64,000 bases of DNA, from the IMG/VR virus record IMGVR_UViG_3300045988_120652; one strand, given 5' to 3'. The notes under the pieces were generated by a model, which was given only the letters and a program-made list of their open reading frames with translations, made no database searches and was not told the DNA's origin. Shown piece by piece: positions 1-59,065 of the stretch. The position numbers and the translations under genes were made by a program. This stretch comes from a virus. How positions within the stretch are numbered: the first letter of the stretch is position 1; each line of letters begins with the position of its first letter.

Positions 1-113
1 TATCCATTTTTGAGTTGTCAGAACAGCGTGAACTGCGCTTGCTCCAACTTGATGCGCTTACAAGCCTTGTCGTAATACTCCTTGTTGAGCTCGAAGCCGA
101 TGAAGTTGCGCTT
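1..113. repeat. Inverted-repeat arm, partner 39979..40091
   Basis: The reverse complement of 39979-40091 matches 1-113 with only a few mismatches. It covers the last ~30 codons plus 17 nt of 3' flank of both beta-class MTase genes. The repeat reaches the window edge, so it may extend further left. Confidence 0.85.
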
Positions 114-920
114 GGTCTGTACGCAGCCTACCTGCGTTGTTCCCACTCCCGAAAACGGGTCTAAGACAATATCACCTTCGTTACTGCTGGCTTTTATCAG
201 TCTACGGATTAGCTTTAACGGCTTTTGAGTGGGATGGATATGTTTTTCTTCATAAAAGTTAATATCAGACCACACGTCAGTAACTCCTATTTGCGGATTG
301 AATGTCTGAGCGACTTTTTCATACGGACAATCAAAGGAGAGTACATGGGAAAGTTTGTCCCAGAGCTCCTTCGTAGGAAATTGCTCACATACGTTATTGC
401 CGGTGTAAATACTCCACATGCCACCGCCATTAGACTTAACCCCCAACGCTTCATTGATTTGCTTGGCAGTCAGTCCTAATGCTTCTTGGCGTTCTTTGAG
501 GAATGGCTTTACAAATTTCTTGTTGTCTTTGATTATAAAGAGTACGCTTTCCGTTACGTTAGGAAACATCTTGTATCTTCGTGTAGCCCGTCCGCTTACG
601 ACACGCATACCCTTATCAATAACAATTTGCTGTCTTAATTCAAGTCCAAGTGATTCAAGGTAAGGAATGAGCAAGACTAAGATTCTGAAATAACCAAAGC
701 AGTAGAATGTTCCACCTATACGCAAAACTCGCGCAACCTCCTTCATCCATTTAATGCACCATTCCACATAATCGCTCTCAGTTCTCCATTGATAATCCCA
801 TTGCTCGTCAATTACTTTCCAGTAAGGAGGGTCTGCAACCGCAAGGCCTATGGAATTATCTTGAATGGCTTTCATCCCTTCCAGGCAGTCTTCATTATAT
901 ATCTTATTCAGTTCTATCAT
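18..920 (-). CDS. DNA methyltransferase, beta-class amino-MTase (N6-adenine or N4-cytosine)
   Basis: 300-aa ORF. Motif IV (VADPPYW) lies near the N-terminus and SAM motif I (DPFSGVGTT) near the C-terminus. Confidence 0.85.
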   Translation of the reverse strand: MIELNKIYNEDCLEGMKAIQDNSIGLAVADPPYWKVIDEQWDYQWRTESDYVEWCIKWMKEVARVLRIGGTFYCFGYFRILVLLIPYLESLGLELRQQIVIDKGMRVVSGRATRRYKMFPNVTESVLFIIKDNKKFVKPFLKERQEALGLTAKQINEALGVKSNGGGMWSIYTGNNVCEQFPTKELWDKLSHVLSFDCPYEKVAQTFNPQIGVTDVWSDINFYEEKHIHPTQKPLKLIRRLIKASSNEGDIVLDPFSGVGTTQVGCVQTKRNFIGFELNKEYYDKACKRIKLEQAQFTLF

Positions 921-11900: not shown

Positions 11901-12115
11901 ATATTGCGGAATCATCCGCCACAATCGCCCCACAGCTGTCCGCAACTGATGAAATGTTATCTGCACAAGCCAATACTAATATTGCGCTCCTGCAAGCCGT
12001 AAACACGCTCCTGCAACGCTTGGAGCAGCCTATCGAAGCCAAGATTGATATGTATGGCCGTGGCAAACTCTACGACAGCATGACAAAGGCTAATCAGTTT
12101 ATGAAGAACAAGTGA
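5912..12115 (+). CDS. Tail tape measure protein
   Basis: 2067 aa with long coiled-coil stretches, a TP901-type core (..LKMTEVLGLIPKMGLEKSIEAVGSSMFKLASTS..ITEFAKRCTGVARTAGITTDQLLALG..), central TM helices and a C-terminal AENGPELVIGRE. Confidence 0.85.
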   Translation: MATQKLAKVVITANASTAKKVLEEIDALVQKYTADIQKMTAAGQANTAECKQAERTLKALSQVQRDNIEDTKRLGEVVQDLANTKLRDLRRAMGSGKSALAGLTGSDADLKRAEQIRSEMKQVGDQMRLIEGQYVKIADGLKNVSNQSDQWLDKAIKQQRDLVGSLEKSDAGYQKNLSILKQLEAEEDRRKGKMGIVEARQTVTSQNASASDLRRAKTTLTEARDNTPTANTGDIAQYNKELQEIEKRLEAVSGKTQKASMSWKQMKQVLAEPNKASGEDIKRTMEVIQQKIQQLPAGSKYVADLRRQYSMLEQTLKGTRMSQSALNDILARSKQGKASLDELRRAYKQLEEELNQINTKSKEFADRQKSMKELKKNIDEVTGAANKQGGAWHTALKNLTAYVGLFAMFNKAKDLVTGAIKKNLEYSGSLTDIRKVSGLTMEQVKQLSTELAKIDTRTSVDGLAQLAYEASKLGVGKYGVEGMAQFVRAADKINVAIGEEMGEKALPSLLKMTEVLGLIPKMGLEKSIEAVGSSMFKLASTSTATSNDITEFAKRCTGVARTAGITTDQLLALGSAFSAQMASPEVAATAMSKFIVALQKNHNLIEKDLAIPAGTINSMYQAGNAMDAIVLILEKMKEKGNMNALGEIFKDVGGDGQRLISSMVTMAKNVDMLKDHLYESQEAFREATAVGKEYSMQQMSAIGILERANNLWEKAFVNPDGVDAVKGMAEWWYEMSKTMTSSPLLKGTLQIALQMVLWTLKGVATLLPVIIGYMASQGVYSGLRLLYQYLAALGMAGKAMFQYVRALFAANAAQSTLNKTMKLNPWIALASIIIGVAGAIYGYTQRAKEAAAAAKEAQRQANAWRETLGQAAVETENLKEKLKNYKRMMGEENLSQKERQGLISRFNRDFRSYIDNLGIEIKNVKDLRDHYSELAQEAEKATYYRMREQAKQQALPKLDNDVNTASNAVMANVEKLGLDKLGVKFEDIYRWVKAGMSAKDITMKLAKMLPKDKSGLFDGFNWKIGKHGYIYRDTYDKNRKAGPASDFQTQQQIAQMYSDNLWFVNAYRRRGNTLNQINKAYKNFVDEDYQSTPPETPGTLDNNAKDKDAIAEEKRRENDQKRAWREDLQQKQDQAKAIMDDVDNYYDRQINAKIAQAISLNMDEAEQKQFVLPLKQNREIVRSQVRLAVAGKENKWEDAKKMMAADMVEQADETGVNLSKDLLDGILNNNIEGLHKLMGVLGKNLGMSMSSITAQIFAKSTRSEQELLKMQFKQMEARRKIAMEHDFTGIVQQNSYDNFNEMGYAAPTKEETTVTKKMVDGKEVLDTSAFDKRRKAIKDMYETARKSLAQLYTIDVSTTDGKGMLMKMLFGDDPDGMAARIKASLGESEESWKAFYLNLIQYSDDYAAAEKKKYDEAKRITDFWWSSNKRNLAQQERIRKMQNESNLFGKRTNLLSNLGLANLTADPEIELMKARMQAAEDYYAFVERNTKNKQLIDEAERARQEAELAYVNQMATAMKSRLSQMKELVQPIENFGAAVGQALAEMRYDAESANDAIKSALKSMLESWGKMALNDVNTQMWKAINDAAAKRGKDKAQPDIEAARANAKVNYTDFSGIDWHNFGTESNPLWVRWTGDHYENKSGDAVYTKEDGTPLPNPDGSVPQSNEPPRAWKKRHPDGTIDDYNKEIKSLGGQMGTSMAEQTGTAVAGAVTGNSGFGDAAAGIAMSGADALLNAQIKKPSKSEKEKKNQLKEEKKHQKDLTKETKKGLSDREKATDKGVKNITKTTEQGNDEQSKGTELAQKGLLAGTETFLNTSFQLKQKNNNEQAKADADLAEQQMTFSIAGAIGKCFQFLGPIAGPIAAAVVMSTLTGLMQWALSSAFNKKKSSSKGPNTKVVSGMLTYDSGNVQDLRPFVGNDGSLYWATEDNKPHNGVSLLTQPTATTINGHPSLVAENGPELVIGRETTQAMMMNNPQLLKALVNYDRNYSGRRAYDNGNIAESSATIAPQLSATDEMLSAQANTNIALLQAVNTLLQRLEQPIEAKIDMYGRGKLYDSMTKANQFMKNK

Positions 12116-14246: not shown

Positions 14247-14771
14247 ATGTTAAAATTCAAACAAAAACGAGATATGAAATTAATAACAATTACCGGTCCG
14301 AGTGGTGCAGGAAAGGACACTGTGGCTCGGATGCTTTCCGACTTGGGCGGCTATAAAGTGATATGTTCTTATACCACCCGTCCGAAGCGTGAAGGCGAAA
14401 TTGACGGTGTGGAACATCACTTTGTGGAGAAGTGTGCTGTGCCGCACGACAAGATGCTGGCTTATACGCAATATGGCGGCTATGAGTATTGGACCACCGT
14501 AGAGCAGGTGGGCGACAAGGCTATCTATGTCATTGATGAAGACGGATTGAAGTCGCTTTGCAAGAAGTTTCCTGATATAGAGCTGTTCAAGATTTGCGTG
14601 TCGGCAAAAGAGCGTACACGTCTTCGCCGAGGCGTTACTCCTGAACGTATGGCACGTGACAAGCAGCGCAAGTGTCTGCCGTTATCGTTCTTCAATGCGG
14701 TAATCTTCAACAACGATTCGCCAAGCGATTTACAGGAAGAAGTGCAGCGTGTGAGATACATGATTGTGTAA
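14247..14771 (+). CDS. Guanylate kinase-like dNMP kinase
   Basis: P-loop ITGPSGAGKDT and the guanylate-kinase signature YTTRPKREGEIDGVEHHFV. An alternative start is at MKLITITG. Confidence 0.6.
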   Translation: MLKFKQKRDMKLITITGPSGAGKDTVARMLSDLGGYKVICSYTTRPKREGEIDGVEHHFVEKCAVPHDKMLAYTQYGGYEYWTTVEQVGDKAIYVIDEDGLKSLCKKFPDIELFKICVSAKERTRLRRGVTPERMARDKQRKCLPLSFFNAVIFNNDSPSDLQEEVQRVRYMIV

Positions 14772-15747: not shown

Positions 15748-16137
15748 ATGGCGAATTTAACATTAAACGAATATCAGAACAAGGCAATGAGTACTTGTAT
15801 GCCTGAGAGTGACAATCTCTTCTATATGCTTGCTAATCTCGTAGGCGAGGTCGGCGAGTTTGCAAGCAAAGCCGGCAAGCACATGCGTAAGGGCAAACTG
15901 CATATAACTACAACACAACGCGACGAAGAAGGCAAGATCTTGCATACACAGGTGTGGAATGTATCTGACGAGGAACGTCATCTTATGCTTTCAGAAATCG
16001 GCGACATTCTCTGGCAGACTGCAGGACTGGCAAAAGTAATGGGCGTTACGCTCGAAGATGTGGCAGAAGAAAACCTCGCAAAACTTGCCTCTCGCAAGCA
16101 GCGAAATGTCATTGCTGGTGATGGTGACGAGCGTTAG
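15748..16137 (+). CDS. mazG: MazG-like nucleotide pyrophosphohydrolase
   Basis: LNEYQNKA, LVGEVGEFASKAGK and EIGDILWQTAGLAKVMGVTLEDVAEENLAKL match the all-alpha NTP-PPase pattern. Confidence 0.75.
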   Translation: MANLTLNEYQNKAMSTCMPESDNLFYMLANLVGEVGEFASKAGKHMRKGKLHITTTQRDEEGKILHTQVWNVSDEERHLMLSEIGDILWQTAGLAKVMGVTLEDVAEENLAKLASRKQRNVIAGDGDER

Positions 16138-30759: not shown

Positions 30760-31197
30760 ATGATCACAAAACTCAATTTCACCGACCGCACCATCAAGAG
30801 CTATGCCATCCGCAAGCTCACGCCCAAGGAGTGTTTCCGCTTGATGGGCGTTCGCGACAACGTAATCGGCACGATGCAGAGCAGCAATGCCCAGGCAGCC
30901 GAACGTCTGCCCGACTGGAAGGGCAAGGGTAAACCCGAAGACATGGCTATATCTGCATCACAGCAGTACAAGCAAGCTGGAAACAGCATCGTGGTGGACG
31001 TGTTGGCCCACATCTACGAGCAGCTTTTCTACCCCGCCCCGCCCAAGCCTCGCCCTGGCGAACAGCTCACGCTCTTCGACGACCTCGAAGACTCGCTGCC
31101 CGCTTTGCCGCCCCCCCCGCAGCCGACAAGAACGAGGAGAAGATATTCCTCACCACGTTCTCCGGCTACGACTCTCAGCTCATGGCAGCCGACGTGA
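30760..31197 (+). CDS. C5-cytosine DNA methyltransferase core, part 1 (motifs IX and X plus Pro-rich linker)
   Basis: IRKLTPKECFRLMGVRD is motif IX and YKQAGNSIVVDVLAHIY is motif X. The linker is PAPPKPRPGEQLTLFDDLEDSLPALPPPP. The frame is lost at the C8 run. Confidence 0.8.
   Translation: MITKLNFTDRTIKSYAIRKLTPKECFRLMGVRDNVIGTMQSSNAQAAERLPDWKGKGKPEDMAISASQQYKQAGNSIVVDVLAHIYEQLFYPAPPKPRPGEQLTLFDDLEDSLPALPPPPQPTRTRRRYSSPRSPATTLSSWQPT
31111..31118. repeat. C8 homopolymer in the poly-Pro linker of the C5-MTase core
   Basis: Counted directly. C9 would read ..LPALPPPPAADKNEEKIFLTTFSGYDSQ.. and fuse 30760..32072 into one 437-aa chain. Confidence 0.9.
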
Positions 31198-32072
31198 TAC
31201 GCGAGTGGCATCCCGACTTCCGATGGACGTGCAAGGGATGGAGCGACATCGACAAATACGCCTGTCAGATGCACAACCTCGTCTTCCCTCAGTTTGCCGA
31301 CTGCGCCCTGGGCGACATCACCAAGATTGACTGGCACGAGGTGAAACGCTCGCTCAAAGGCCGCGAGGTTGACCTCTTCACCTATTCCTCGCCCTGCCAG
31401 GACATCAGTCAGGCTGGCAAGCAGATGGGTTTGCAGGAGGGCAGCGATACCCGAAGCGCACTGCTTTGGCGTGTGGCGGATGCCGTGGAGGTGCTTCGCC
31501 CGAAGTATCTCTTGCAGGAGAACGTGGCGGCACTGGTAAGCCAGAAGTTCATGCCCGACTTTCAGAAGTGGCTCGACAAACTCTCCTCGCTCGGCTATGT
31601 CTCTCGCTGGGCTCGTCTTAACGCCAAGAACTACGGTGTGCCGCAGAACCGCGACCGTGTGTTCTGCCTCTCCATGCGCCGTGACGTGGCCTTCGACTAT
31701 CAGTTTCCCGAACCCTTCGAGCTGCTTATCCGACTGGAGGATGTGCTCGAAGAGGAAGTGTCCGACCGCTATTTCCTCAAGGATGATGCCGTGAGCAAGT
31801 TCCTCAAGGCAAACGACTCTGACAATGCCTTATTCCTTCAATTCGACCTGCCACCGACACATGAGGCGGCAATGTTCCTCAAGACATGGCTCACGCTGCG
31901 CATGAACACTTTCAACGGATGGGAGAGGGATTTGGACGAACTGCGCGATTGCATCGAGAACGAGCGAGATGTATTAAACAGCGATTTTGCAAGTTTCAGC
32001 GAGTATCATACATTCCCTTGCGAAGGTTTTGAGGAATTGTTTAAGGAGAATATGAAGAGGAAGAAGGAATGA
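31182..32072 (+). CDS. C5-cytosine DNA methyltransferase core, part 2 (motifs I-VIII, no complete TRD)
   Basis: The frame is open from 30933 and protein-like from about 31119. It reads IFLTTFSGYDSQ (motif I, upstream of the first ATG), TYSSPCQDISQAG (IV), LLQENVAAL (VI) and GVPQNRDRVFCLS (VIII), then FPEPFEL..LEDVLEE..SDRYFL, the usual N-terminal stub of a TRD. Confidence 0.8.
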   Translation: MAADVIREWHPDFRWTCKGWSDIDKYACQMHNLVFPQFADCALGDITKIDWHEVKRSLKGREVDLFTYSSPCQDISQAGKQMGLQEGSDTRSALLWRVADAVEVLRPKYLLQENVAALVSQKFMPDFQKWLDKLSSLGYVSRWARLNAKNYGVPQNRDRVFCLSMRRDVAFDYQFPEPFELLIRLEDVLEEEVSDRYFLKDDAVSKFLKANDSDNALFLQFDLPPTHEAAMFLKTWLTLRMNTFNGWERDLDELRDCIENERDVLNSDFASFSEYHTFPCEGFEELFKENMKRKKE

Positions 32073-47131: not shown

Positions 47132-50100
47132 ATGAATAAAACGTTTTATACTAAATTCGCAGTAGAAAAAACTAAATATATGACATTAACAACAACTAAA
47201 GACTATTGGGTCTCGCCCACTGCCCTACACATAGAACTTAACGCTATGTCACGCCCCGACTACGTACAGGCATCGTGTACCGGTGAAGCTCAGATACTTG
47301 TGTATGTCAAGGACATCATTGACTACGATGCTGGACATAACTATCGCCGTTGGCCATTGCAGGCCTCGCCTACTGTCTTTAATAGTCATTCTGAAAAATA
47401 TGTCTATGCGGCTATACCTCGTAGTCTAAATTCGGCTGCGTCCGCATGGATTGTTTTCCCTTCCGAACAGATTGATATCTACGGCAAAAACGAGAAAGAA
47501 GAGCAGATTGGTGACGAGCGTTTTTATTATATCTTCCTGCAAGGCATTATTACTTCTTCGGGCGATAACGGTACGGTAAATCGAGATTGGAAAGTTGAAT
47601 ATTTCTCTGGCTATTTGTCTTCCGACGAAGCTATCTCATCGATCTTGAACGATTCAGTTTGGTATAGCTACAGTACAGTGTCTAATACGGTCACATTTCT
47701 AAAGAATATGACCATGAAAGCGGGTACTTGGTTTCGTGATTTTTTCGCTAAGACCGTTACTATAGTGTCAGGCGGCAGTATCACGTTCGAAGGTGACAAA
47801 CAGGCTTCGTTGTCGGGTATAGCTCACGAAAACACTTCGCTTGAAGTAGAAGACCGAATCGTGACACCTAAATATCTTGACCTGAAAGCCCTCTCGAAAG
47901 TACATGACGATGAAGCGCAGGGAATGATCCGTTTTTTGAACGGGCTGAAACTCGGGAATACGGAAAAAGGACTAACAGGAGTAGGTGACGCTGTGCTGGG
48001 CGATGTTATCGTTGACCGTGTGCATGACGTGGACTCTACTCCTGCCGACCGTGTGGTTGTGGGCGCACAGGGCTTCGACCTGTACTTGGGCAAAGACGGC
48101 AAGAGTCACCTGTATATTGACTACCTGGTGGCGAGGGTGAAGGCTTTCTTCGCACAGTTGGAGATTCGCAGGGTGTCGTACTCGGGCGGCACGACTATCT
48201 TCTCGAACGCGGGCTCGACTATAGCAAAGGTAATGGAGCTGAAAAACGGCAATGAGACAGTGGCGTACAAGTGCTATGCCGTTGCCGACGACGGCACTAC
48301 GAAAACGATGAACTGGTGGCATGTGGGCATGATGGCGCTGTGTCAGACGTTCAACGTGAAGTCGGACACGAGCAATGATGTGTCGAACCGATACTATTGG
48401 CGACTTGTGGTTGACACCGGGCAGGAGGTGCTGGCTGACGGCAAGACTTACGACTATGTTGTGTTGTCGAACTTAAAGGATTTTGACGGCAATGGTACGG
48501 TGCACGGGGATATAAGACCGTTGTCTGCTTTGTTTGAGGAGTACGAGAAAAAGACTGCTGACGATAGCAAAACCCCGGTAGCGAGCCGTAGGTTTTACGG
48601 CTACGAGGCTGTGGACGGTGGCGAGCCTGACGCTCCTGCGGAGGGTGACGTGATTGTGCAGGTGGGCGACCAGATCAGGTGGGAGTCGTATGGCAATGTG
48701 ATAAAGCTCGCTACTTCGACCGAGGATAATAACACGGGCAATGCTCCTTCTATTACGATGTATCACGGCATTGGCGCGCCTCGCATGGTGGGCACTGCGG
48801 TCACGCCTTACGTATGGCAGGAGGTGACGTGTATTCTGTCGCCGGGGAAGGTGAGAATAAATGCTGACATGTTCGAGTTGTTTTCGGCCAGTACGGGCAA
48901 TGTGATTGAGCCTTACGTGGTGTCGTATGAGCTGGTGCCTACGAGCAGGACGCTTGTAAAGCACGACGACGGCACGACGACTCCGAATGGCTTCGGGGTG
49001 GACGTGATAAAGCGTGTGGGCAGCTCGAAGACGGTGCTAAAGGCTGATGAATACACGGTGAAGGCTGAGGTGACGTATGAGGATGGAAACACGGAGACGT
49101 TTAGTCTTGCTGACCTGTACGAGAGTGTACTTCGCAATCTGACTGCCTTGAAGCTGGTAGCTTGCAGCGCAAAGGATGCTACTGATGTGCTTGCAGAGAC
49201 AGACATTGCCGTGCTGAGTGACGGCAAGAAGGGCGCTGACGGTGCAAATGGAAACGACGGTGCAAACGGTACGGACGGTGAGAGTGCGATTGATGTGATA
49301 TGGTATCCTAATCCGCTTGTTATCAACACGACGAGCGACGGCAGTGGCAATGTGTATGCTGACTGTAGCAATGCTACGGCACGAGTGAGTTTTTGGCGCG
49401 ACAACGAAAATTGGGGAGAAAGATATATCGACCAAATCTCTGTGCAGAATGAGGTAAACTGCCATGCGACCGCCGAGATTCAGAATGGCGATTTTACGGT
49501 TAAGATATTAAGCATTGAACATGATAGTATAAAAACTAAAGACGGTAAGTCGATAACGGTGCCTCGTACTACTGCGAGCGTGACGATAGCAGCCCGCTAT
49601 TGGGTGACTGCGAGCATGTTCACTCACGTATTCGCAACGCTGTCTATCAACGTCAACGTATCGGCGGTGTGGGGCGGCATCGAGATGAATATGTACGGGT
49701 TGACAAGTAGTTTCTCTGAGATTAGCAATAAATACAATGGCCTACCGCTGAAGACACAGGGCGAGCTGACGGACTATACTTCGACTATCAAGCAGACGGC
49801 ACGGGATATTTCGCTGAAGGTGAGCGAAACGGCTGTGGGCAGGAAGAATATGCTTGTGGGCTGTGCGCTGAGACGGCAGGGTGAAGGAGTGAGAATACAA
49901 ACACAAGAAGGTGGCGGTATAGAGACTATCGGAGGCGTAGGCGGTGTGAATTGCGTTCACGTAGTAGCTACAACAGCGAATCACTACTCGGGATTATTCT
50001 GGTGGGGAATCACTCCCAATGATACGAAGTGTATAAAGATTGAAAAAAACAAGACTTACACGGCATCTGTTTGGGTGAAATGCGACAGAACTGATGCTAA

Positions 50101-51913
50101 GGTTTACATCGAGGCTAAGTGGGCGGAGACTGCAACTGGTGGCGAGCGCCTTGACTCCGTGATACAAAGCGGCGACAATCTGTTTTCTGTCAAGCAGGCG
50201 AACACATGGCAGTTCTGCTCGGTGACGTTCAACACCAACGACGAGACAAAGTTCAAGGACTACATCGAAATGAACTTTTGGGTTAACAACAAAACCGAGG
50301 GAATAACTACTAATGCCTGGTTCTGTCAACCCATGTTGGTCGAGGGCGACGAATATGTAGGATGGTCTATGTCGAAGGAGGATGCTGAGTATGTTGGCGG
50401 CAACCTGCTGGATAATACTGATACGCTGAAGACTGGCGGCACGCTGACAGTGGCGACTGAGAATACGTGGCTGCATCCGACAAACGGCAGCGCGGACGAA
50501 ATTGCACGGCAGACTTATAACGGTTGCGCTACGCTCAACTCGGACGCTCGCTACTATACGAAAAACATCGACACTGTACAGTGGGATTTGGGTGATACGG
50601 GCTTTATTAAGCGAGGACAGGACTATATGCTTAGTTTTTGGGCTAAAGGCAACAAGGGCGAACGTTTTTGTGCATATCTGTATAAGGACGGCTCGCAGGG
50701 TATTTATGCAGAGGTGCTTGACCATGTTGACGGGCATAACCAGCTGACAAGCGGTGACGGTTACGCCATGGTGGAGTTTGACAAGAATTATGAATGGAAG
50801 CAGTACTGGGTGCATTGGAGAGTGGTAGACAGCAATCTGCCTAAATACGTGCTTATACGCTGTGTGCAGGGTTGTAACCTCTGCATATCTCAGCCTAAGC
50901 TGGAGTATGGCGCTACGGTGACGGACTACACCACAAGCCGCTCTATGTCGTCGCGACTGCTTGACGCTGGCATAGACATAAACAGCAAGCAGATAATGCT
51001 GACGGCAGACAAGACTAAGTTCCGCACGCAGTCTGGGGATGAGGTGGCTGTGTTTGACGATAAGGGTATTAATGCAAAGCTGCTCAATGTGGATAATGCT
51101 GTTGCTAATGTAATAAAAACCAATGAATTGACAGCTAAAAATCTGAATGTGACAGGCAGCAGTACGTTCGGAATATGGAAGATTGAGCATGACAGTACTT
51201 ATAACTGCGACATCATCACTGCCAATGTTGATACGTGGGGAGGGGTGAACATAAGCGGCAGCATGATACAGTACACCCCTGCCTTTGTGAGGAGCGGCGA
51301 CCCTTTGAGCGGATACATGCGTGTGGGCGCTTACGTGACGGAGTTCGGCTTCGGCGAGAGCAGCGGTCAGTACTATTCTGGGGTGTGGCTGGGCAGGGCT
51401 GCATATACTGTTGCTAACGGAAAGCAGAACAGCTGGGGTCTGCCTTCGGCATACAAGATGGCGGATGAGTCTGTGGACGCGACGAAATTCGTAGCTTACG
51501 TATACTCGCCTTATAGCGGCAATACGCCGTCGGTGTACATGTACAAGCCGAAGGGTGGCGTGGTGATGGAGACGAATGCAGGTATACGTGCTGCCTTTAT
51601 CAGTCATGTGCACGACACTGGCAGCGATTCGGGTGCAGGTGACAGCACTGGACTCATAGTCACTACCAACAACAGCTACAGTATCACGGTGAAGCTGCCG
51701 AATAACCCTATAGCTGGACAGCAGGTGACGGTGGTGCAGAAGGGCCGCGGCAAGGTGAAAATAAAAAGCACAACGGCGAACATACGCACAGCTGGCGAGT
51801 CTTCGGCTACGCAGCAGCGTATTAGCGACTCGCAGGGACAGATAAGTCTTTTTGTGTTTGACGGCACTGACTGGAACTGCTCTTACTTTAACAGCAGAAT
51901 GTATTCGAGCTAA
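47132..51913 (+). CDS. Tail fibre / large receptor-binding structural protein
   Basis: 1593 aa with a collagen-like G-X-Y run GKKGADGANGNDGANGTDGES (about 49216-49278) and repeated CBM-like jelly-roll-type segments. The 539-aa antisense ORF 49994..51613 is rejected. Confidence 0.55.
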   Translation: MNKTFYTKFAVEKTKYMTLTTTKDYWVSPTALHIELNAMSRPDYVQASCTGEAQILVYVKDIIDYDAGHNYRRWPLQASPTVFNSHSEKYVYAAIPRSLNSAASAWIVFPSEQIDIYGKNEKEEQIGDERFYYIFLQGIITSSGDNGTVNRDWKVEYFSGYLSSDEAISSILNDSVWYSYSTVSNTVTFLKNMTMKAGTWFRDFFAKTVTIVSGGSITFEGDKQASLSGIAHENTSLEVEDRIVTPKYLDLKALSKVHDDEAQGMIRFLNGLKLGNTEKGLTGVGDAVLGDVIVDRVHDVDSTPADRVVVGAQGFDLYLGKDGKSHLYIDYLVARVKAFFAQLEIRRVSYSGGTTIFSNAGSTIAKVMELKNGNETVAYKCYAVADDGTTKTMNWWHVGMMALCQTFNVKSDTSNDVSNRYYWRLVVDTGQEVLADGKTYDYVVLSNLKDFDGNGTVHGDIRPLSALFEEYEKKTADDSKTPVASRRFYGYEAVDGGEPDAPAEGDVIVQVGDQIRWESYGNVIKLATSTEDNNTGNAPSITMYHGIGAPRMVGTAVTPYVWQEVTCILSPGKVRINADMFELFSASTGNVIEPYVVSYELVPTSRTLVKHDDGTTTPNGFGVDVIKRVGSSKTVLKADEYTVKAEVTYEDGNTETFSLADLYESVLRNLTALKLVACSAKDATDVLAETDIAVLSDGKKGADGANGNDGANGTDGESAIDVIWYPNPLVINTTSDGSGNVYADCSNATARVSFWRDNENWGERYIDQISVQNEVNCHATAEIQNGDFTVKILSIEHDSIKTKDGKSITVPRTTASVTIAARYWVTASMFTHVFATLSINVNVSAVWGGIEMNMYGLTSSFSEISNKYNGLPLKTQGELTDYTSTIKQTARDISLKVSETAVGRKNMLVGCALRRQGEGVRIQTQEGGGIETIGGVGGVNCVHVVATTANHYSGLFWWGITPNDTKCIKIEKNKTYTASVWVKCDRTDAKVYIEAKWAETATGGERLDSVIQSGDNLFSVKQANTWQFCSVTFNTNDETKFKDYIEMNFWVNNKTEGITTNAWFCQPMLVEGDEYVGWSMSKEDAEYVGGNLLDNTDTLKTGGTLTVATENTWLHPTNGSADEIARQTYNGCATLNSDARYYTKNIDTVQWDLGDTGFIKRGQDYMLSFWAKGNKGERFCAYLYKDGSQGIYAEVLDHVDGHNQLTSGDGYAMVEFDKNYEWKQYWVHWRVVDSNLPKYVLIRCVQGCNLCISQPKLEYGATVTDYTTSRSMSSRLLDAGIDINSKQIMLTADKTKFRTQSGDEVAVFDDKGINAKLLNVDNAVANVIKTNELTAKNLNVTGSSTFGIWKIEHDSTYNCDIITANVDTWGGVNISGSMIQYTPAFVRSGDPLSGYMRVGAYVTEFGFGESSGQYYSGVWLGRAAYTVANGKQNSWGLPSAYKMADESVDATKFVAYVYSPYSGNTPSVYMYKPKGGVVMETNAGIRAAFISHVHDTGSDSGAGDSTGLIVTTNNSYSITVKLPNNPIAGQQVTVVQKGRGKVKIKSTTANIRTAGESSATQQRISDSQGQISLFVFDGTDWNCSYFNSRMYSS

Positions 51914-52728: not shown

Positions 52729-52761
52729 TACGAAGAACGATTTTTATAATAACAAGTGAAT

Positions 52762-55455
52762 ATGGAAAAGAAGTACATTGACATGGGTAGTGTCGGCATG
52801 CACCCTAAAGGGGCATACGACGCGAGTGTGACTTACTGTAAGCTACAGCTTGTGACGCACGGCGGCAACACCTATCTGAGCAAGGCGGACGGCAACATCG
52901 GGCACGAGCCTGTGGGTGAGGACGAGTGGTGGAGCCTGCTCGTGGACGCTAAGAGCGCTCACGACGGTGCTCAGAGTGCGCAGGAGGCTGCGGAAGCGGC
53001 TAACGCTGCCGCCCAGACTGCTAATGACAAGGCTGCGGAAGCTGCCCAGGCTGCGGAGAGCGTGACTACTGCTACGGCAGGGCTACAGGCTGCTTTGGAC
53101 AAGGTGGATGCAGCGGCTACGGCTGCGACTTCGGCTTCGGCTTCGGCACAGGCTCAGGCAAGCCGTGCGCAGGAGGCTGCTGAGCAGGGCGAAGCTCTCA
53201 ACCTACAGCTTACCGACACGCTGCGTAAGGCTAAGGCGGAGGTGGATAAGGCTGTGGCTATTAACAATACGGCAACAGCTAATGAGCAGGAGCGCGTGAA
53301 GGCTGAGCATGAGCGTGCAGATGCCAGCCAGCAGGCTGTGATGAACGCTAACACGGCTGCTGATTCTGCAAATACTGCTGCCGAGAAGGCTAACGGAGGC
53401 GCAGAAAAGGTGTCTGCTGCGGTAACTGCTGCCAGCAACGTTAACGCGACTCTTGCTGACGACGGATTGCTGACTGTGACTAATCGCAACGGTGAGAGTA
53501 AAAGCGTGAAAGTAGGTGAAGGCGAGAAGGTGAACCAGCTTGTAGCGGACATGAAGGAGACTAAGGAGGCTGTGGCACAGAACGCTGCGGACATTGCCGA
53601 ACTGAAGGAGAACGTTAAGGACTACTATGTAGGCGAGAACGACGAGGTGACGGGCGACCCTCACTTCAAGAACTGCAAGGGCAACAAGGATTTCTTGGGC
53701 GAATGGCATCCGTTCCTTATCGACCATACCGACAACACTGGCGAGGCTACACACCCCGTAGGTCAGCTGATGGACAATAATCACTTCCGCTTTGTGTCGG
53801 GTGCGTTTGCGCCTACCGTTGGTATTACAGAGGAAATGCGTGCTGCGTGTGATGTACAACTCTATACCGATGCCGAGCACACTACCCCACTGACACTGAA
53901 AAATGGTGTCGTCGTTACTGATAAGGCTGGCGCACATCCTTACGATGCAACAGAGGTGTACAACTCGCTTGGTTTGGTAGACTTGTACGACGGCGAGGGT
54001 AACAAGGTGCGTCAGTTATTGCCTTGGGAGACCACAGAGACCAAGTATTCGGTGATGATTGGTCGCTACGACACCCTATATCCAGTAGACCGCCAGACAG
54101 GCGAGAGCGGTAAGGTGCTGTCGGGTATATTCAAGCGTCAGGTGCGCTACGACGGCATTGATACGGGCAAATACCCGTTGCTTGGTACGGCATTGGCACC
54201 ATGCCTGGTGACGACAGTGGGCAACAAGACACGCAACTTCTTCTTTGCGTATGCGGTAGGTGACGCTAATACTGCAAGCGGTGCGAGCTCAGCAGGCGCG
54301 GACATGTGCTCGATGTTTGACGGAGAGGACAGGACTTATCCGCGGTACAGTATTAACCAGATGAGTGACATGCAGTACGCACGAGCTAACAATGCTGACG
54401 TAAATGCACCAGTGCCGTTTGCCGAAGGCGGTTATCACGCTATCAACACCTTCACGTTGTGCATGGAACTGCTTTATGGTACAAAGTATCTGCATGACAA
54501 GAACTTGTTCGGCTCGGGAATATCGAGCAACGACTCATGTGCATCGGCGGATGACTGGATGAATAACGGTGGCGTGAGGGTGCGCGAGAAAGGCACTACA
54601 GACTGGACATATAAAAAATGGGGCGACCAAACGCCGTTTGGCGTAAAGTCGGATATGAGCAAGGTTGGTTTTTCGAACTTTGTCAATCAGGAGAAACCGA
54701 AGGAGCAGTGTATGGAGAGTCAGATGGCAGCATCGTGGGCTGTGGAATTTGGCATAGCAGAAGATACGGAGTATGAGGCATACGGACAGACGTATCGCTA
54801 CAGAAATGTGACAGGAGTAAAGGGACTGGCTGACGGCGTGATGAACTGCAAGGTGTATCGCATCAAGACAGGTGCGTGTATGGGTTATAAGGCTGCGGAC
54901 AGTAAGGTTGAGTATGACTGTGAGTTGTGTCTACGTCTTAGTCTTGTACATGGTATGAACCTAAGCGGAGACGTGTTCGGCTACTGGGGCGGCGGCATGG
55001 AAATGGTGGGCACGGGAAAGCAGCAGGAGAATACTATCCAGGACAAGATAAAGAACACCTACATAGACTTCTACCTTGAGCCAAAACAGAAGAACTGGCT
55101 CATGGAAAATAAAACCACCCTTAGCGACTTCAAGACGTTTGCATTTGAGGGCGTGTATGCCAAGATAGGCACGTTCGGACCTCCAATATTAGGCGGCGGT
55201 TACTTCAAGAAGCGTATGGGGCTAACTCCTTACAAGACGGAGAACGGCGGAAATATAGATTCTTATCAATGCTGCTACGGATGGGCAGAACCGTATTGGC
55301 TTGACCGATACGGGCAGCGCGTTCGTATAGCCGTGCGCTTTCGTGGCTTTGCGTCTGCTGCGTATTGTTCGCCTCGGTTTCTGTATGCGTACTACTCGGC
55401 TGCTCATACGTCCGTGTCTTATGGCGGTTCTGCCCAGTGTCGCATCGTGCAATAG
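52762..55455 (+). CDS. DGR target protein (tail-fibre-like, variable C-terminus)
   Basis: ORF 52756..55455 with the ATG at 52762. It has an Ala-rich coiled coil and a large C-terminal domain, and its last 38 codons form the VR. Confidence 0.8.
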   Translation: MEKKYIDMGSVGMHPKGAYDASVTYCKLQLVTHGGNTYLSKADGNIGHEPVGEDEWWSLLVDAKSAHDGAQSAQEAAEAANAAAQTANDKAAEAAQAAESVTTATAGLQAALDKVDAAATAATSASASAQAQASRAQEAAEQGEALNLQLTDTLRKAKAEVDKAVAINNTATANEQERVKAEHERADASQQAVMNANTAADSANTAAEKANGGAEKVSAAVTAASNVNATLADDGLLTVTNRNGESKSVKVGEGEKVNQLVADMKETKEAVAQNAADIAELKENVKDYYVGENDEVTGDPHFKNCKGNKDFLGEWHPFLIDHTDNTGEATHPVGQLMDNNHFRFVSGAFAPTVGITEEMRAACDVQLYTDAEHTTPLTLKNGVVVTDKAGAHPYDATEVYNSLGLVDLYDGEGNKVRQLLPWETTETKYSVMIGRYDTLYPVDRQTGESGKVLSGIFKRQVRYDGIDTGKYPLLGTALAPCLVTTVGNKTRNFFFAYAVGDANTASGASSAGADMCSMFDGEDRTYPRYSINQMSDMQYARANNADVNAPVPFAEGGYHAINTFTLCMELLYGTKYLHDKNLFGSGISSNDSCASADDWMNNGGVRVREKGTTDWTYKKWGDQTPFGVKSDMSKVGFSNFVNQEKPKEQCMESQMAASWAVEFGIAEDTEYEAYGQTYRYRNVTGVKGLADGVMNCKVYRIKTGACMGYKAADSKVEYDCELCLRLSLVHGMNLSGDVFGYWGGGMEMVGTGKQQENTIQDKIKNTYIDFYLEPKQKNWLMENKTTLSDFKTFAFEGVYAKIGTFGPPILGGGYFKKRMGLTPYKTENGGNIDSYQCCYGWAEPYWLDRYGQRVRIAVRFRGFASAAYCSPRFLYAYYSAAHTSVSYGGSAQCRIVQ
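55329..55442 (+). repeat. DGR variable repeat (VR)
   Basis: A 114-bp match to the TR. Of 19 mismatches, 18 fall at TR adenines. Confidence 0.9.
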
Positions 55456-55463
55456 GCGCAGCC

Positions 55464-55497
55464 GGGTGCAACCCAGTGCAGCGCGGTGCAACCGCGC
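55464..55497 (+). other. GC-rich GTGCAA hairpins downstream of the VR
   Basis: gggtgcaaccc (55464-55474) and gcgcgg-tgcaa-ccgcgc (55481-55497, 6-bp GC stem). Confidence 0.4.
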
Positions 55498-55684
55498 CAT
55501 GTCTTTGGCAATCAGAAACAAAATTAGTAACTTTATAGTGGTTTAAAAGATAGAATAAAATGAATCAAGACAAAATATTTCCTCAAAAACAGGACAAGCT
55601 CAGCATGAGGGCCGAAGCCTCTGAAGCCTGCATGAGAGGTGACGCTATCCATATAGATGATAGCTAAAGAGGTTGGTGTCTCCG

Positions 55685-55798
55685 AGCCGTGCGCTTTCGT
55701 GGCAATGCGAATAATGCGAATTGTTCGCCTCGGTATCTGAATGCGAACAACTCGGCTGCTAATACGAACGTGAATAATGGCGGTTCTGCCCAACGTCG
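55685..55798 (+). repeat. DGR template repeat (TR)
   Basis: Non-coding copy. In the VR frame it reads AVRFRGNANNANCSPRYLNANNSAANTNVNNGGSAQ and has 11 AAY codons. Confidence 0.9.
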
Positions 55799-56024
55799 GG
55801 CATCATAAATGATGCAGAACTAAGAACACGGGAACACCACTCTCGCTCAGGAGAAGCAGAAAATATCAAAGACAAGGGATGTGAGCGTAGCACGATGGCT
55901 GTACGTGATGCGGCGAACGTGACCGAGAGACATCCTGACGGGCAGACAGTCCCGTCAACCTTTTAAGCCCGACACTGAATATCAACAGCGGAGAAATCCG
56001 CATAAAAACATATATATAACAAAC
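55685..56024 (+). ncRNA. Putative DGR RNA (TR plus 226-nt spacer up to the RT start)
   Basis: Inferred from its position between the TR and RT. It contains the hairpin gacgggcagacagtcccgtc (about 55937-55956). The true boundaries are unknown. Confidence 0.4.
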
Positions 56025-57413
56025 GTGCATAGACCTAACTACATCCCCTTCACTGCCGACGACTACATAAAGGCTGTGTGGAGTGCCGCAAAAGGCAGAA
56101 AGAAAAGACCCGAGGTAAAGGAGGCATTGAAGGATGTAAAAGGGCTATGCGCAAGTATTGAACAACATCTCAAAGATGGAAGCTGGCATGAGGACATCAA
56201 GTACCGGAAGCTGACCAAGGTGAACAACAACAAGAAGGTGAGGCATATCGACGCGCCTACGTTCAGAACTTTAGTGTATGAACATCTGCTGAAGAACAAG
56301 TTGGAGCCGATATACCGCAGACGCGACCCGTTGGTGTCGATTAACTGCAAGGAAGGATGCGGAATAACACCATCGGCGAAGCACAAGGAACTGAAAAGCC
56401 ACTATGTGCTGCCAAGAGTGAAGCACCTGTTCTACGACCTGCGGGATATGGACTGGGTAGTGACTGCCGACCAACGTCAATGCTACGCTCACGTGAAGCC
56501 GAGCGTACTGCGCAAGGAACTGAAATATCTTATTGGCGACAAGTGGCTGATAGACTTCGCTGTGGAGCTGTGCTTTGTTGACGGGCAGTTGCCTGTAGGC
56601 ACACCTACGAGTCCGCTGGCTCACCACATACTGATGCTGAGATTCCATGAATGGCTGTGCCGAAACACCGAATGGCGGCTGTGCTATGCCGACAACTGCA
56701 TGGTAGCTTGCCGGACGAAGGAAGAAGCACAACAGATGAAGTGGCGAATAAGGCAGTATTGGTGGTATGAGCTGAAGATGAGGGCGAAGCGTACAGATAC
56801 GAAGGTTGCTAATATCAACGACGGTAGAGGGATTGACTTCTGCGGTTATAGGGTGATACGCAACGCCGACAAGAACGTGACAGACTCGAACAAGGGATAT
56901 TGCCTTATACGCAAGGGCACATTGCTGAGAGCAAGGATGTGTAACAACGACAATTCGTGGGGCAGCTACTTCGGACTGATGCGGCACACGGACGGATTCG
57001 GAGAGATGGTAAAAATAGAAAAGGAGATGAAGTTAAGAGAACTGACAAAAAAGATTCGCATAGACCGCAAGATGGACGCTCCGAATATCAAGCCTCTGGA
57101 GTTGGCACGTAGCGGACAGGCGTTCACGGTGTTCGATTACGAGATACGCAAGAGCGAGAAGTCGGGCGAGCCTAACTGGATTAAGATGCTGATAGGTATG
57201 CCGGAGGTGACCGAAGACGGCGAGCTTACGGGCAAGATTGTTGCCAGGGAGGTGCATGGTGGAATGATGGGCATTGTGGCTTGGATGGTGGCAGCGGAGC
57301 AGGAGTATGGCAAGAAGACCTTGCTGCCGTTGGAGGACGTGAGGATTGTGGACGAGTGCGGATATATCTTTGAAGGCTCGACTAATCAGATGCAGTACAT
57401 TGATGAATGTTGA
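56025..57413 (+). CDS. DGR reverse transcriptase
   Basis: GTG start. KVRHIDAPTFRTLVYEHL (motif 1/2), VVTADQRQCYAHV (motif A Asp), LPVGTPTSPLAHHIL (motif B/4), CYADNCMVAC (motif C) and GIDFCGY (motif E-like), plus a ~120-aa C-terminal extension. Confidence 0.85.
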   Translation: MHRPNYIPFTADDYIKAVWSAAKGRKKRPEVKEALKDVKGLCASIEQHLKDGSWHEDIKYRKLTKVNNNKKVRHIDAPTFRTLVYEHLLKNKLEPIYRRRDPLVSINCKEGCGITPSAKHKELKSHYVLPRVKHLFYDLRDMDWVVTADQRQCYAHVKPSVLRKELKYLIGDKWLIDFAVELCFVDGQLPVGTPTSPLAHHILMLRFHEWLCRNTEWRLCYADNCMVACRTKEEAQQMKWRIRQYWWYELKMRAKRTDTKVANINDGRGIDFCGYRVIRNADKNVTDSNKGYCLIRKGTLLRARMCNNDNSWGSYFGLMRHTDGFGEMVKIEKEMKLRELTKKIRIDRKMDAPNIKPLELARSGQAFTVFDYEIRKSEKSGEPNWIKMLIGMPEVTEDGELTGKIVAREVHGGMMGIVAWMVAAEQEYGKKTLLPLEDVRIVDECGYIFEGSTNQMQYIDEC

Positions 57414-57450: not shown

Positions 57451-58035
57451 ATGGAGAAGTATTATTTTGACGAGGCACAGCCGAGACTGACTGTTGGCGA
57501 CGGTGTCGTTCTGCTGCTTATCAACGGCAAGGAAGAGACGGAGTTTTCGGACGGTATGCCTGACGAGAACGGAATGGCGACTACCGAAGCGGTGGTGCGC
57601 AAGGTGTGGGTATATGACGGTGTGCGCCTGGAGACGGGCGGCATGACATCGGAGGCTGCGCTTACTGCTGCGGCACAGAAGATGGTGTTGGCGGAGATTG
57701 AGAAGTACGACACGTCTCCTGCTGTAAACAGCTTCATCCTTAACAGACAGCGTGTGTGGCTGGACAAGGCGACTCGTGTGGGACTGATGAACTCTACTAC
57801 TATCGCTAAGGCTATGGGACAGCCTACTACTACGCTGTGGCTTGGCGATGCGAAGCTGGTGGTGGAGTGCGACAAGGCGATACAGTTGCTCTCGGCACTG
57901 GAGATGTATGCTCTGGAGTGCTTTAATGTTACGGCTGCGCATAAGAAGGCGGTAGCGGAAATGAGCACGGTGGAGAGTGTACTGGGGTATGACTATACGA
58001 AGGGGTACCCAGAGGTGCTGACGATGAACGTTTAA
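57451..58035 (+). CDS. Hypothetical protein (possibly DUF4376-like, tail-fibre-associated)
   Basis: 194-aa ORF. The antisense ORFs 57424..57942 and 57462..57968 are rejected. Confidence 0.5.
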   Translation: MEKYYFDEAQPRLTVGDGVVLLLINGKEETEFSDGMPDENGMATTEAVVRKVWVYDGVRLETGGMTSEAALTAAAQKMVLAEIEKYDTSPAVNSFILNRQRVWLDKATRVGLMNSTTIAKAMGQPTTTLWLGDAKLVVECDKAIQLLSALEMYALECFNVTAAHKKAVAEMSTVESVLGYDYTKGYPEVLTMNV

Positions 58036-58633: not shown

Positions 58634-59065
58634 ATGAAAGCAAGTGACGTATTGATTGAGAAGATTAAGCAGTTTGAAGGGTATCGGGCGAAGGCGTACC
58701 GATGCCCTGCTGGGGTGTGGACGTGTGGGTATGGGCATACCAAGGGTGTGACGGCTCGCACGGTGTGCGACAAGAAGAAGGCGGAGGAGTGGCTGAGGGC
58801 TGACCTTGCTCCTATCGAGAGCTTCTTGTCTGCCGTGCCGGAGGTGTGTAAGTCGCAAGGACGCTTTGACGCTTGTGCGGACTTCTGTTTCAATCTTGGT
58901 ACGGGTGCGTTCCGTGGGGCTACGCTGTTTAAGCTGATACAGAAGAAGGCTTCGGTGGCTGCTATCCAGGCGGAGTTCTTGAAGTGGGTGTATGCCGGAG
59001 GTAGACAGATTGAAGGACTGAAGACGAGGAGACGGTGGGAAGCGGGACGCTTCGCGGAGTTTTGA
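58634..59065 (+). CDS. GH24 (T4-type) lysozyme / endolysin
   Basis: IKQFEGYRAKAYRCPAGVWTCGYGHT has the catalytic Glu followed by the Cys/Asp and Thr spacing of GH24. Confidence 0.85.
   Translation: MKASDVLIEKIKQFEGYRAKAYRCPAGVWTCGYGHTKGVTARTVCDKKKAEEWLRADLAPIESFLSAVPEVCKSQGRFDACADFCFNLGTGAFRGATLFKLIQKKASVAAIQAEFLKWVYAGGRQIEGLKTRRRWEAGRFAEF

Follow-up and report, generated by a model that had tools for sequence, protein, structure and literature searches.

An apparently active diversity-generating retroelement of the GxxxSP reverse transcriptase clade in a tape-measure-bearing phage

The prototype of diversity-generating retroelements (DGRs) is the BPP-1 cassette (mtd-avd-TR-brt), whose reverse transcriptase (RT), bRT, is inactive without Avd and for which RNA-primer-guided homing was proposed by Naorem et al. 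A second point of reference is the DGR of the epsilon crAss-like phage crAssE-Sib (OR575929; Babkin et al., Viruses 2024, PMC11054128). According to that paper, its RT lacks GxxxSQ, so that such elements are missed by myDGR, and motif 4 ends in SP in the majority of RTs from retroviruses, retrotransposons and group II introns. The crAssE-Sib RT carries the annotation 'retron-type'. For most zeta crAss-like phages, cassettes without Avd have been reported.

We analysed a 64,000-nt stretch of viral DNA (IMG/VR record IMGVR_UViG_3300045988_120652; the window), for which a sequence-only reading had proposed a complete DGR. Judged on the evidence below, the window very probably holds an active DGR of the non-canonical GxxxSP RT clade in a tape-measure-bearing Bacteroidales phage. 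The repeat pair of 114 bp named in that reading was recovered by a repeat finder as the sole long pair in the window (83% identity), and consisted of a variable repeat (VR) and a template repeat (TR):

55329..55442, + strand: VR; mutable body about 55329-55434, with 55435-55442 (CAGTGTCG) acting as IMH
55685..55798, + strand: TR, non-coding; contains 27 A and, read in frame with the VR, 11 AAY codons; IMH* at 55791-55798 (CAACGTCG)

The layout was that of a DGR, with the VR at the 3′ end of the target gene and the non-coding TR beside the RT gene; the distances given before, 242 nt between VR and TR and 226 nt between the TR and the GTG at which the RT ORF starts, were confirmed. A recount of the 19 mismatches between TR and VR agreed with the earlier one, 18 falling at TR adenines (hypergeometric p = 2e-13) and one at C55794. 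When read from 55686 (the VR from 55330), the TR gave AVRFRGNANNANCSPRYLNANNSAANTNVNNGGSAQR, and all 11 AAY codons were altered in the VR, to the residues originally listed (F, S, A, Y, Y, Y, Y, H, S, S and Y). Outside these, the VR differed in a twelfth codon (TAT to TTT), and the A mismatches of the mutable body were found at codon positions 1 or 2 in every case. As in BPP-1, the 3′ ends of the repeats showed an IMH/IMH* asymmetry. The single non-A mismatch had been ascribed to this asymmetry; the two 3′-most mismatches (A55793 vs G55437 and C55794 vs T55438) were identical in 12 of 12 alignable close relatives (the alignment of a thirteenth, L012, ends before these columns) and thus form one fixed IMH*/IMH difference. 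Since this fixed pair includes one A site, the mutagenesis products amount to 17 A sites, not 18.

Direct repeats 356 nt apart could also result from ordinary duplication or gene conversion without reverse transcription. However, the mismatches were adenine-specific and one-directional in the window and also family-wide, where 1240 of 1293 body mismatches (96%) in 99 unique TR/VR pairs lay at TR-A; this effectively refutes duplication. Their position within the AAY codons, and the RT gene and conserved structured RNA that always stood beside the repeats, likewise speak against it.

The window is not an epsilon crAss-like (Crassvirales) genome: among its products are a tape-measure protein of 2067 aa and a head maturation protease, and a megablast search with it returned no match to any phage record. 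Its 13 close relatives were found on viral contigs of 40-100 kb. The window and three of these relatives (L002, L003 and L004) shared an identical TR and yet carried four different VRs, the differences being located at TR-A sites. Among the VRs of the clade, 25 of the 27 TR-A positions were polymorphic, and at polymorphic non-A cells the VR agreed with its own TR in 353 of 356. As the contigs of the relatives do not represent a clonal population, the VR differences have built up over an undated span. These comparisons between related sequences show the flow of information from TR to VR to be adenine-specific and ongoing, and the DGR is real and apparently active.

The gene that receives this variation was as follows:

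52762..55455, + strand: target gene, tail-fibre-like receptor-binding protein (RBP); 897 aa from ATG, the ORF opening at GTG 52756

Counted from the ATG at 52762 the CDS has 897 aa plus stop, and from the GTG at 52756 it has 899 aa. The VR had been described as the last 38 codons of an 898-aa CDS; it does lie at the 3′ end of the gene, but the VR/TR homology stops at 55442, inside the fourth codon ahead of the stop (..C R I V Q *) and 13 nt before the stop codon, and the CDS length is corrected as above. The N-terminal part of the protein, about 225 aa, is rich in Ala and matches PHROG tail-fibre families and phrog_20680, and an RBP module of some 670 aa comes after it; residues 227-897 were 40% identical (E = 2e-148, about 680 aa aligned) to the crAssE-Sib RBP WOZ57270, and the tail-fibre-like assignment is thereby supported. 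Adenine mutagenesis of a VR that closes an RBP gene is a trait shared with BPP-1. The N-terminal region of about 225 aa is extra relative to crAssE-Sib. No Pfam domain was detected in any of 279 target homologues, and a C-type-lectin fold of the target was not reproduced in our own structure model.

The RT gene announced downstream of the TR was confirmed by Pfam, and it was the only RT in the window:

56025..57413, + strand: RT gene, 462 aa, GTG start; Pfam RVT_1 E = 3.5e-9, PHROG RT E = 2e-27
56589..56615, + strand: RT motif 4, LPVGTPTSP, IGxxxSP-type and not GxxxSQ
56685..56696, + strand: RT motif C, YADN in place of YxDD
57087..57410, + strand: alpha/beta domain at the RT C-terminus, specific to this family (about aa 355-450, about 100 aa; AF2 secondary structure confident)

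The DGR hallmark [LIV]GxxxSQ was missing from RT domain 4, where LPVGTPTSP was found in its place; compared with the IGxxxSQ of bRT, the I/V matching I181 was kept, whereas the equivalent of Q187 was Pro. An SP in motif 4 was present in 117 of 120 RT homologues and at all 115 loci (115/115), and myDGR would probably miss the DGR of the window. The RT was 45% identical, at 99% coverage, to that of crAssE-Sib, which has a GxxxSP RT of equal length and the same order of target, VR, TR and RT. Together with the homology of the RBP to WOZ57270, this places the element in the GxxxSP-type clade already published in 2024 for crAssE-Sib, of which it is a new sub-variant, apparently functional as a DGR; the carrier, however, is a different type of phage, unrelated to crAssE-Sib. 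An AF2 model of the RT (pLDDT 90) gave its best Foldseek E-value (2e-14) with a group II intron RT (GsI-IIC RT, 6AR1), a class that shares the SP ending of motif 4, and matched the DGR bRT 8UB7_A with a TM of 0.78 over the target; retron RTs were weaker structural matches. Unlike group II introns, the window had no intron RNA (no Rfam match) and no target-site insertion, and carried an adenine-mutagenic TR/VR pair instead. A retron was ruled out by the lack of an Rfam match (msr/msd) and by the adenine-biased TR/VR pair.

The catalytic YxDD box was likewise not found in the window RT. Its motif C reads YADN, whereas bRT has two catalytic aspartates there (D215 and D216) and crAssE-Sib has YADD, so that a D-to-N change might have killed the RT and left the TR/VR differences as relics; some epsilon crAss-like relatives are described as having fragmented RTs in the consulted part of PMC11054128, which would fit such a fossil. 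We regard this as very unlikely. YADN was shared by the window and all 13 close relatives (14/14) and, spread over several subclades, occurred at 32 of 115 loci, with YADD at the other 83, and wherever a TR/VR pair was detected at a YADN locus, the mismatches were adenine-biased (27/27). The RT as a whole is under strong purifying selection, judging from a dN/dS of 0.05-0.09 at dS up to 1.26, and YADN has been kept across dS > 1. The sequence-only reading had named the lack of A-restricted variation and a dead RT as the signs of a fossil; this selection and the VRs that differ at TR-A among TR-identical relatives, while still following substitutions in their own TR, argue to the contrary.

Relative to bRT (328 aa), the 462-aa RT of the active DGR proposed here carries the extra C-terminal domain, which lay outside the part covered by bRT in Foldseek. 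This domain had no Pfam match and no PDB sequence match, and gave 78 matches among 1.84 billion representatives, always at the C-terminus where the protein was about full length; its dN/dS was 0.02-0.05. No Avd was detected, in contrast to BPP-1: there was no Avd-like Pfam match among the 33 window ORFs in a search that was not exhaustive, and the cassette contained no avd or HRDC accessory gene within its two gaps. The term "complete" thus holds for this element in terms of its own clade, but not with regard to Avd and the GxxxSQ hallmark. Given that bRT requires Avd, and that the 33 ORFs were tested by Pfam alone with several small ORFs unannotated, the cassette could be functional and yet non-autonomous, with other ORFs, DNA beyond the window or the host supplying an Avd-like factor or helper. 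We consider this unlikely, although clearly less so than a fossil. More than 100 loci all showed the order target-TR-RT, and an avd gene would not fit into their gaps. In addition, the RT has acquired a further domain that is conserved and strongly selected, the cassette is at work in both crAss-like phages and tape-measure phages, which are unrelated backgrounds, and Avd-less cassettes are those reported for most zeta crAss-like phages. We infer that the cassette is independent of Avd, and the fused alpha/beta domain is possibly an RNA-binding module that has taken over the RNA-positioning role of Avd. In the consulted part of the crAssE-Sib paper (PMC11054128) neither Avd nor the C-terminal domain is mentioned, and the spacer RNA and the hairpin array considered below are not described.

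Between TR and RT, and directly upstream of the TR, we found the following RNA elements:

55669..55684, + strand: 5′ strand of the TR-closing helix, abutting the first TR base (55685) and pairing with 55829-55844
55829..55844, + strand: 3′ strand of the TR-closing helix
55800..55815, + strand: hairpin directly 3′ of the TR (GCAUCA-UAAA-UGAUGC), in the MFE and centroid folds and kept in the close clade
55837..55979, + strand: conserved spacer RNA core (covariance model R2, E = 0.0037)
55845-47 with 55855-57, + strand: P1, loop CAGGAGA
55869-73, + strand: invariant AAGAC
55876-81 with 55931-36, + strand: P2, with a 49-nt insert
55937-42 with 55951-56, + strand: P3
55967..55977, + strand: putative primer strand of the spacer (GCCCGACACUG)
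55988..56001, + strand: GNRA-tetraloop hairpin (GCGGA-GAAA-UCCGC) just ahead of the RT start

In related loci the R2 model had its matches in the TR-RT interval or a short way ahead of the RT, and it was validated by 35 of the 38 genome loci that had not gone into building it. The spacer RNA is shared with the crAssE-Sib element (L001, matched by R2 at E = 1.5e-25), and the weak score of the window clade (E ~0.004) is due to the insert in P2. No Rfam match was obtained for this RNA. In an alignment that was itself fitted to the model, 95% of the cells were paired, against 30-49% in slid controls, and 171 cells showed double changes, a number reached in none of 500 shuffles (53.8 +/- 6); by these counts the helices covary. 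The closing helix was evaluated with RNAduplex on 41 subfamily representatives, in which cognate strands gave -20.9 and non-cognate strands -12.0 kcal/mol, with 0 of 10000 permutations as good. With regard to the spacer tail, 55967-73 pairs with the TR/spacer junction (55795-55801), and 55970-77 complements the VR IMH (55435-42) perfectly but has two mismatches against the TR IMH*. The sequences thus show complementarity between tail and IMH, which was also present in crAssE-Sib; the tail-VR complement was 7.02 nt for cognate and 4.89 nt for non-cognate pairs (p < 1e-4), with many covarying classes.

These cis-acting features (covarying P1-P3, a TR-closing helix and a tail with complementarity to both TR junction and IMH) resemble those of BPP-1, where a structured spacer RNA, a duplex of TR-upstream sequence with the spacer and a fold-back primer strand are likewise found, and where the primer RNA also pairs better with IMH than with IMH*. 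The closing helix would be the analogue of the avd:Sp 'cPRT Stop' duplex, and by this analogy the spacer RNA probably provides both a primer duplex and a stop duplex. The order of the parts differs: in the window the stop strand lies 5′ and the primer strand occupies the 3′ end, whereas in BPP-1 the primer strand (Sp47-56) comes ahead of the stop strand (Sp59-70).

Directly after the stop codon of the target gene we also found an array of DNA hairpins:

55455..55497, + strand: three DNA hairpins with GCA triloops (55455-55463, 55464-55474 and 55481-55497, the last with a 7-bp GC stem)

DNA hairpins after the VR are shared with BPP-1, although the latter has one GRNA-tetraloop hairpin and the window has several with GCA loops, outside the GRNA consensus; crAssE-Sib also has the GCA-hairpin array. 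Family-wide, the density of GCA-triloop hairpins was 24.8 per kb over the 110 nt that follow the VR and 0.31 per kb upstream (80-fold), and 68 of 71 regions after the VR contained at least two. The folding energy alone of this region was not exceptional (z = -0.63).

Taken together, we propose that an RNA of about 55669-56001 would be made, holding the TR and the structured spacer, in which the helix 55669-84/55829-44 would close off the TR, the P1-P3 hairpins would serve as a protein-binding core and the 3′ tail (55967-77) would fold back on the 3′ end of the TR as the primer strand. The RT may then begin cDNA near C55790, copy the TR with misincorporation opposite adenines and halt at the closing helix, which is the 5′ boundary of TR and VR. 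The cDNA with its attached primer RNA, complementary to the VR IMH (CAGTGTCG) and not to the TR IMH* (CAACGTCG), would home to the VR, possibly helped by the hairpin array, and would replace 55329-55434, so that about 13 codons of the C-terminal tip of the tail fibre are randomised. The priming site, the stop at the closing helix and the part played by the RT C-terminal domain are the presumptive steps of this scheme. Rewriting the tip of the tail-fibre protein would be expected to switch tropism and affect host range.

For the family, we tentatively put forward a broader reading, on which we would place somewhat less than even confidence: the clade may be an Avd-independent DGR in which the C-terminal domain, possibly RNA-binding, stands in for Avd, and in which a YADN RT without SQ still mutagenises adenines. 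The covariation of the spacer tail with the VR IMH would, if true, be the first phylogenetic support for RNA-primer-guided homing.

The window carries a genuine diversity-generating retroelement (DGR) which diversifies the tip of a tail fibre, and its parts lie at the following positions:

52762-55455, target gene, encoding a tail-fibre-like protein
55329-55442, variable repeat (VR), whose 3' end is the IMH
55685-55798, non-coding template repeat (TR), whose 3' end is the IMH*
56025-57413, reverse transcriptase (RT) gene

The two 114-nt repeats were the sole long direct repeat within 52-58.5 kb, with gaps of 242 nt between VR and TR and 226 nt between TR and RT. They differed at 19 positions, 18 of them TR adenines (27 A in the TR; hypergeometric p = 2e-13), and the remaining mismatch was C55794 against T55438. 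Read in the frame of the target ORF, the TR gave AVRFRGNANNANCSPRYLNANNSAANTNVNNGGSAQR; all 11 AAY codons were altered in the VR, plus one TAT codon, and A mismatches in the mutable body fell at codon positions 1 or 2 only. The sequence-only reading had described this repeat pair, its adenine bias, the altered AAY codons and the RT ORF, all of which were recovered, and its account of the DGR held overall, except that the CDS, given as 898 aa, has 897 aa when counted from ATG. The VR had been taken as the last 38 codons, and four codons were found to separate it from the stop; the 18 A-site mismatches counted there are to be read with the last two VR/TR mismatches as a fixed IMH/IMH* difference. 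A small ORF at ~55560-55667 (35 aa) was rejected as an accessory gene, being too short and in a poorly conserved stretch.

The target protein showed 40% identity over ~680 residues (E = 2e-148) to the RBP of crAssE-Sib, an epsilon crAss-like phage with a published GxxxSP-type DGR, and had an additional Ala-rich N-terminal region of ~225 aa beyond the RBP-homologous part. Short imperfect direct repeats rich in GCTGC/GCGGC (52985-53151) encode an Ala/Gln/Glu-rich N-terminal stretch, which is absent from the crAssE-Sib RBP and looks like a coiled-coil-like shaft. Nothing meaningful was obtained with the target profile against PDB sequences, and Foldseek with a model of the target C-terminus gave no significant match, this model not being good enough for a C-lectin comparison.

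The RT is a non-canonical DGR RT. It matched Pfam RVT_1 (3.5e-9) and a PHROG RT family (2e-27), its motif 4 was LPVGTPTSP (IGxxxSP, not GxxxSQ), its motif C was YADN and not YxDD, and its 462 aa included ~110 extra C-terminal residues. No second RT was found within the window. Sequence search of the RT against PDB returned marginal matches only (weak Cas6-RT-Cas1 and LtrA). An AF2 model using 76 homologues was confident (pLDDT 90), and in Foldseek it grouped with RTs of group II introns (6AR1, 2e-14) and with bRT, the RT of the Bordetella phage prototype BPP-1 (8UB7_A, 5e-14, TM 0.78 normalised to bRT). A C-terminal alpha/beta domain, about 355-450, lay beyond the bRT end and had no match in Pfam or PDB sequences; when 1.84 billion representatives were scanned exhaustively with HMMER, only 78 proteins were hit, among which those of about full length carry the domain at the C-terminus, like this RT family. 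The modelled alpha-beta-beta-beta-alpha order may at most recall a dsRBD-like topology. RT dN/dS was 0.05-0.09 at dS 0.5-1.3, and that of the C-terminal domain was 0.02-0.05. YADN was present in 14/14 members of the window clade and in 32 of 115 loci across the family, in several subclades; a literature search on YADN in reverse transcriptases found nothing relevant. In two RT homologues (P0021, P0038), the public ORF calls join the target gene or TR to the RT, with an Asn-rich TR-encoded peptide; these 'fusion' proteins probably reflect a recoded stop codon or an artefact of ORF calling and no real fusion.

No Avd-like Pfam match was observed in 33 ORFs across the window. The bRT is inactive without Avd, which positions the template:primer duplex, and most zeta crAss-like DGRs have been reported without Avd. 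It is a reasonable, hypothetical idea that the conserved RT C-terminal domain could act as an Avd substitute.

Adenine-specific mismatches were observed in the TR/VR pairs of almost every related locus. With the last 12 columns left out, TR-A accounted for 1240 of the 1293 mismatches in 99 unique pairs, and 49% of A sites were changed (T 607, C 459, G 174). Within the clade of the window (13 contigs, RT identity 83-99%), the related contigs being diverged genomes and not one population, 25/27 A positions of the VRs were polymorphic, and non-A positions varied solely where the TR varied. At 353 of 356 such variable non-A cells the VR was the same as its own TR, and therefore TR-to-VR transfer went on after the lineages split. 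A dead RT, which would make this a fossil DGR, is very unlikely because of this tracking, the low RT dN/dS and the adenine-biased mismatches in 27/27 YADN loci in which a TR/VR pair was detected; against it also stands the identical TR of the window and three close relatives (L002, L003 and L004), which have four different VRs. Judged from these comparisons, the window DGR is most probably active.

A covariance model of the TR-RT spacer RNA was seeded on two loci and rebuilt once. The rebuilt model gave one match per related locus, between TR and RT or just upstream of RT, matched the window at 55837-55979 (E = 0.0037) and recovered 35/38 genome loci, none of which was used in model building. 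Its three covarying hairpins (P1-P3) had 95% of cells paired, against 30-49% in slid controls, and 171 double-change cells, where shuffles had 53.8 +/- 6 (0/500 as high); the alignment is model-fitted, which works in favour of the structure, but strong evidence comes from the slide control and from how many pair types occur. Compared with shuffles, the spacer also folded better (z = -3.5). With RNAalifold, a plain MAFFT alignment yielded P1 only, covariance-model realignment being required, and Rfam (E <= 1) gave no match over 50-60 kb, spacer included. P2 in the window's clade holds a 49-nt insertion with its own stem-loops (55876-55936) and retains the conserved GAG that directly precedes its 3' strand; the length at this site is 8-40 nt in other subfamilies.

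In every subfamily, a TR-closing helix joined the ~18 nt directly upstream of the TR to the part of the spacer that immediately precedes P1, in spite of unrelated sequences; RNAduplex energies were -20.9 kcal/mol for cognate and -12.0 kcal/mol for non-cognate pairs (0/10000 permutations as good). In the window, 55669-84 pairs with 55829-44, abutting the first TR base. This helix resembles the 'cPRT Stop' duplex (avd:Sp) of BPP-1, the site of cDNA synthesis termination. The element order differs from that of BPP-1, the presumed stop strand being first here and the primer strand last.

The spacer tail 3' of P3 matched the VR 3' junction as a perfect complement of 6-10 nt. This complement covers IMH bases specific to the VR and, in many subfamilies, flanking bases present only at the VR; the flanks covary.

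Spacer tail / VR junction pairs
GGCTTG / CAAGCC
AACTTG / CAAGTT
AAGCTTG / CAAGCTT
AAACTTGA / TCAAGTTT
AAGCACTTGA / TCAAGTGCTT
AGCCTGAGC / GCTCAGGCT
ACAACTG / CAGTTGT
CGACACTG / CAGTGTCG (the window)

The mean complement was 7.02 nt for cognate and 4.89 nt for non-cognate pairs (p < 1e-4). A local hairpin ('P4') was rejected for the conserved GCCCGGCTTGC tail since its pairing register varies between subfamilies, and the tail is better explained as a putative primer/IMH-complementary strand. In the window, the TR/spacer junction 55795-55801 is a further pairing partner of 55967-73. Two bases specific to the IMH*, A55793 and C55794, would be mismatched beneath the primer strand, which would account for their never being carried over to the VR. 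For BPP-1, better pairing of the primer RNA with IMH than with IMH* was proposed to set the homing direction (Naorem et al., 2017), so the idea of primer/IMH homing is not new; the cross-family tail/IMH covariation may be new supporting evidence for primer-guided homing.

Within 110 nt after the VR, 2-4 short GCA-triloop hairpins were found in 68/71 unique regions, at a density of 24.8 per kb as compared with 0.31 per kb upstream; GCA was the only triloop enriched after the VR. Those of the window are:

55455-63, GCA-triloop hairpin
55464-74, GCA-triloop hairpin
55481-97, GCA-triloop hairpin

Their DNA folding energy was no better than that of shuffles (z = -0.63), and the case for them is made by the family-wide enrichment, not by energy. 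BPP-1-type DGRs have one 7-10-bp stem with a GRNA tetraloop, in contrast to this array.

A tblastn search against 50,697 phage records gave one strong match, crAssE-Sib (RT 45% identity, 99% coverage), whose record annotates VR, IMH, TR and IMH* beside its RT; megablast of the cassette and of the window against phage records gave no match. The crAssE-Sib cassette was described by Babkin et al. (2024; PMC11054128), who emphasise the unexpected GxxxSP motif, owing to which myDGR misses the cassette, and report a normal YxDD; by term search, neither Avd nor C-terminal domain occurs in that paper. The window DGR is a member of this published GxxxSP clade in a different phage background. The window encodes a holin together with the following:

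5912-12115 (+), tape-measure protein, 2067 aa
18626-20317 (+), head maturation protease
58634-59065 (+), endolysin

Because these three are encoded, the phage is of long-tailed type; the window itself is not crAss-like. Its DGR cassette (RBP module, TR, spacer RNA, RT) nevertheless shares homology with the cassette of epsilon crAss-like phages, which implies horizontal movement of the cassette as a module.

Other genes of the window were observed as follows:

47132-51913 (+), upstream of the cassette, 1593-aa protein with CBM_4_9 carbohydrate-binding domain, probable fibre
57451-58035 (+), immediately 3' of RT, 194-aa DUF4376/tail-fibre-like protein, probable fibre
18-920 (-), N6/N4 DNA methylase
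1953-3041 (-), PAPS-reductase-domain protein
14247-14771, guanylate-kinase-like protein
15748-16137, MazG
30760-31197, short C-5 cytosine methylase-like ORF

The last five belong to nucleotide metabolism/DNA modification. Matches of the short ORF were confined to the C-terminal end of C-5 cytosine methylases, and with the overlapping ORF 31182-32072 it may be a split or frameshifted gene. Against L002, the closest relative (RT 99% identical), the blastn alignment breaks over the last ~450 nt of the target gene (54862-55315) and restarts at 55315, 14 nt ahead of the VR; identity is almost complete in the TR-RT segment and just 83-90% in the target gene body, a pattern of mosaic or recombination around the cassette.

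The RT family comprised 399 protein homologues; on viral contigs 194 relatives were confirmed and 80 loci kept. A further 38 loci in species-representative genomes were almost all from Bacteroidales (Parabacteroides, Bacteroides, Phocaeicola, Prevotella, Alistipes, Odoribacter). Three relatives on genome contigs (L099, L109, L113) came from bins labelled Fibrobacter, Pseudoflavonifractor or Limiplasma, which could be mis-binned phage contigs or a broader host range.

The basic finding, a DGR in a gut phage, is ordinary. In the literature, we did not find described for such DGRs the YADN catalytic box, the private RT C-terminal domain, the apparent Avd absence, the rearranged-but-analogous spacer RNA or the GCA-triloop hairpin arrays. 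DGRs, which are abundant in gut phages, are the main natural system of targeted hypermutation, and their surveys depend on the RT hallmarks GxxxSQ and YxDD and on Avd. The clade departs from all three, yet adenine mutagenesis appears from its repeats to be clearly ongoing, so DGRs of Bacteroidales phages are probably under-counted by standard finders, neither the SQ glutamine nor the second aspartate of motif C would be indispensable to adenine mutagenesis, and the minimal two-gene cassette (target and RT, plus an RNA of ~340 nt) could serve directed evolution as a simpler chassis than bRT-Avd. Finally, the tail/IMH covariation bears on how homing locates the IMH, a step of the DGR mechanism.
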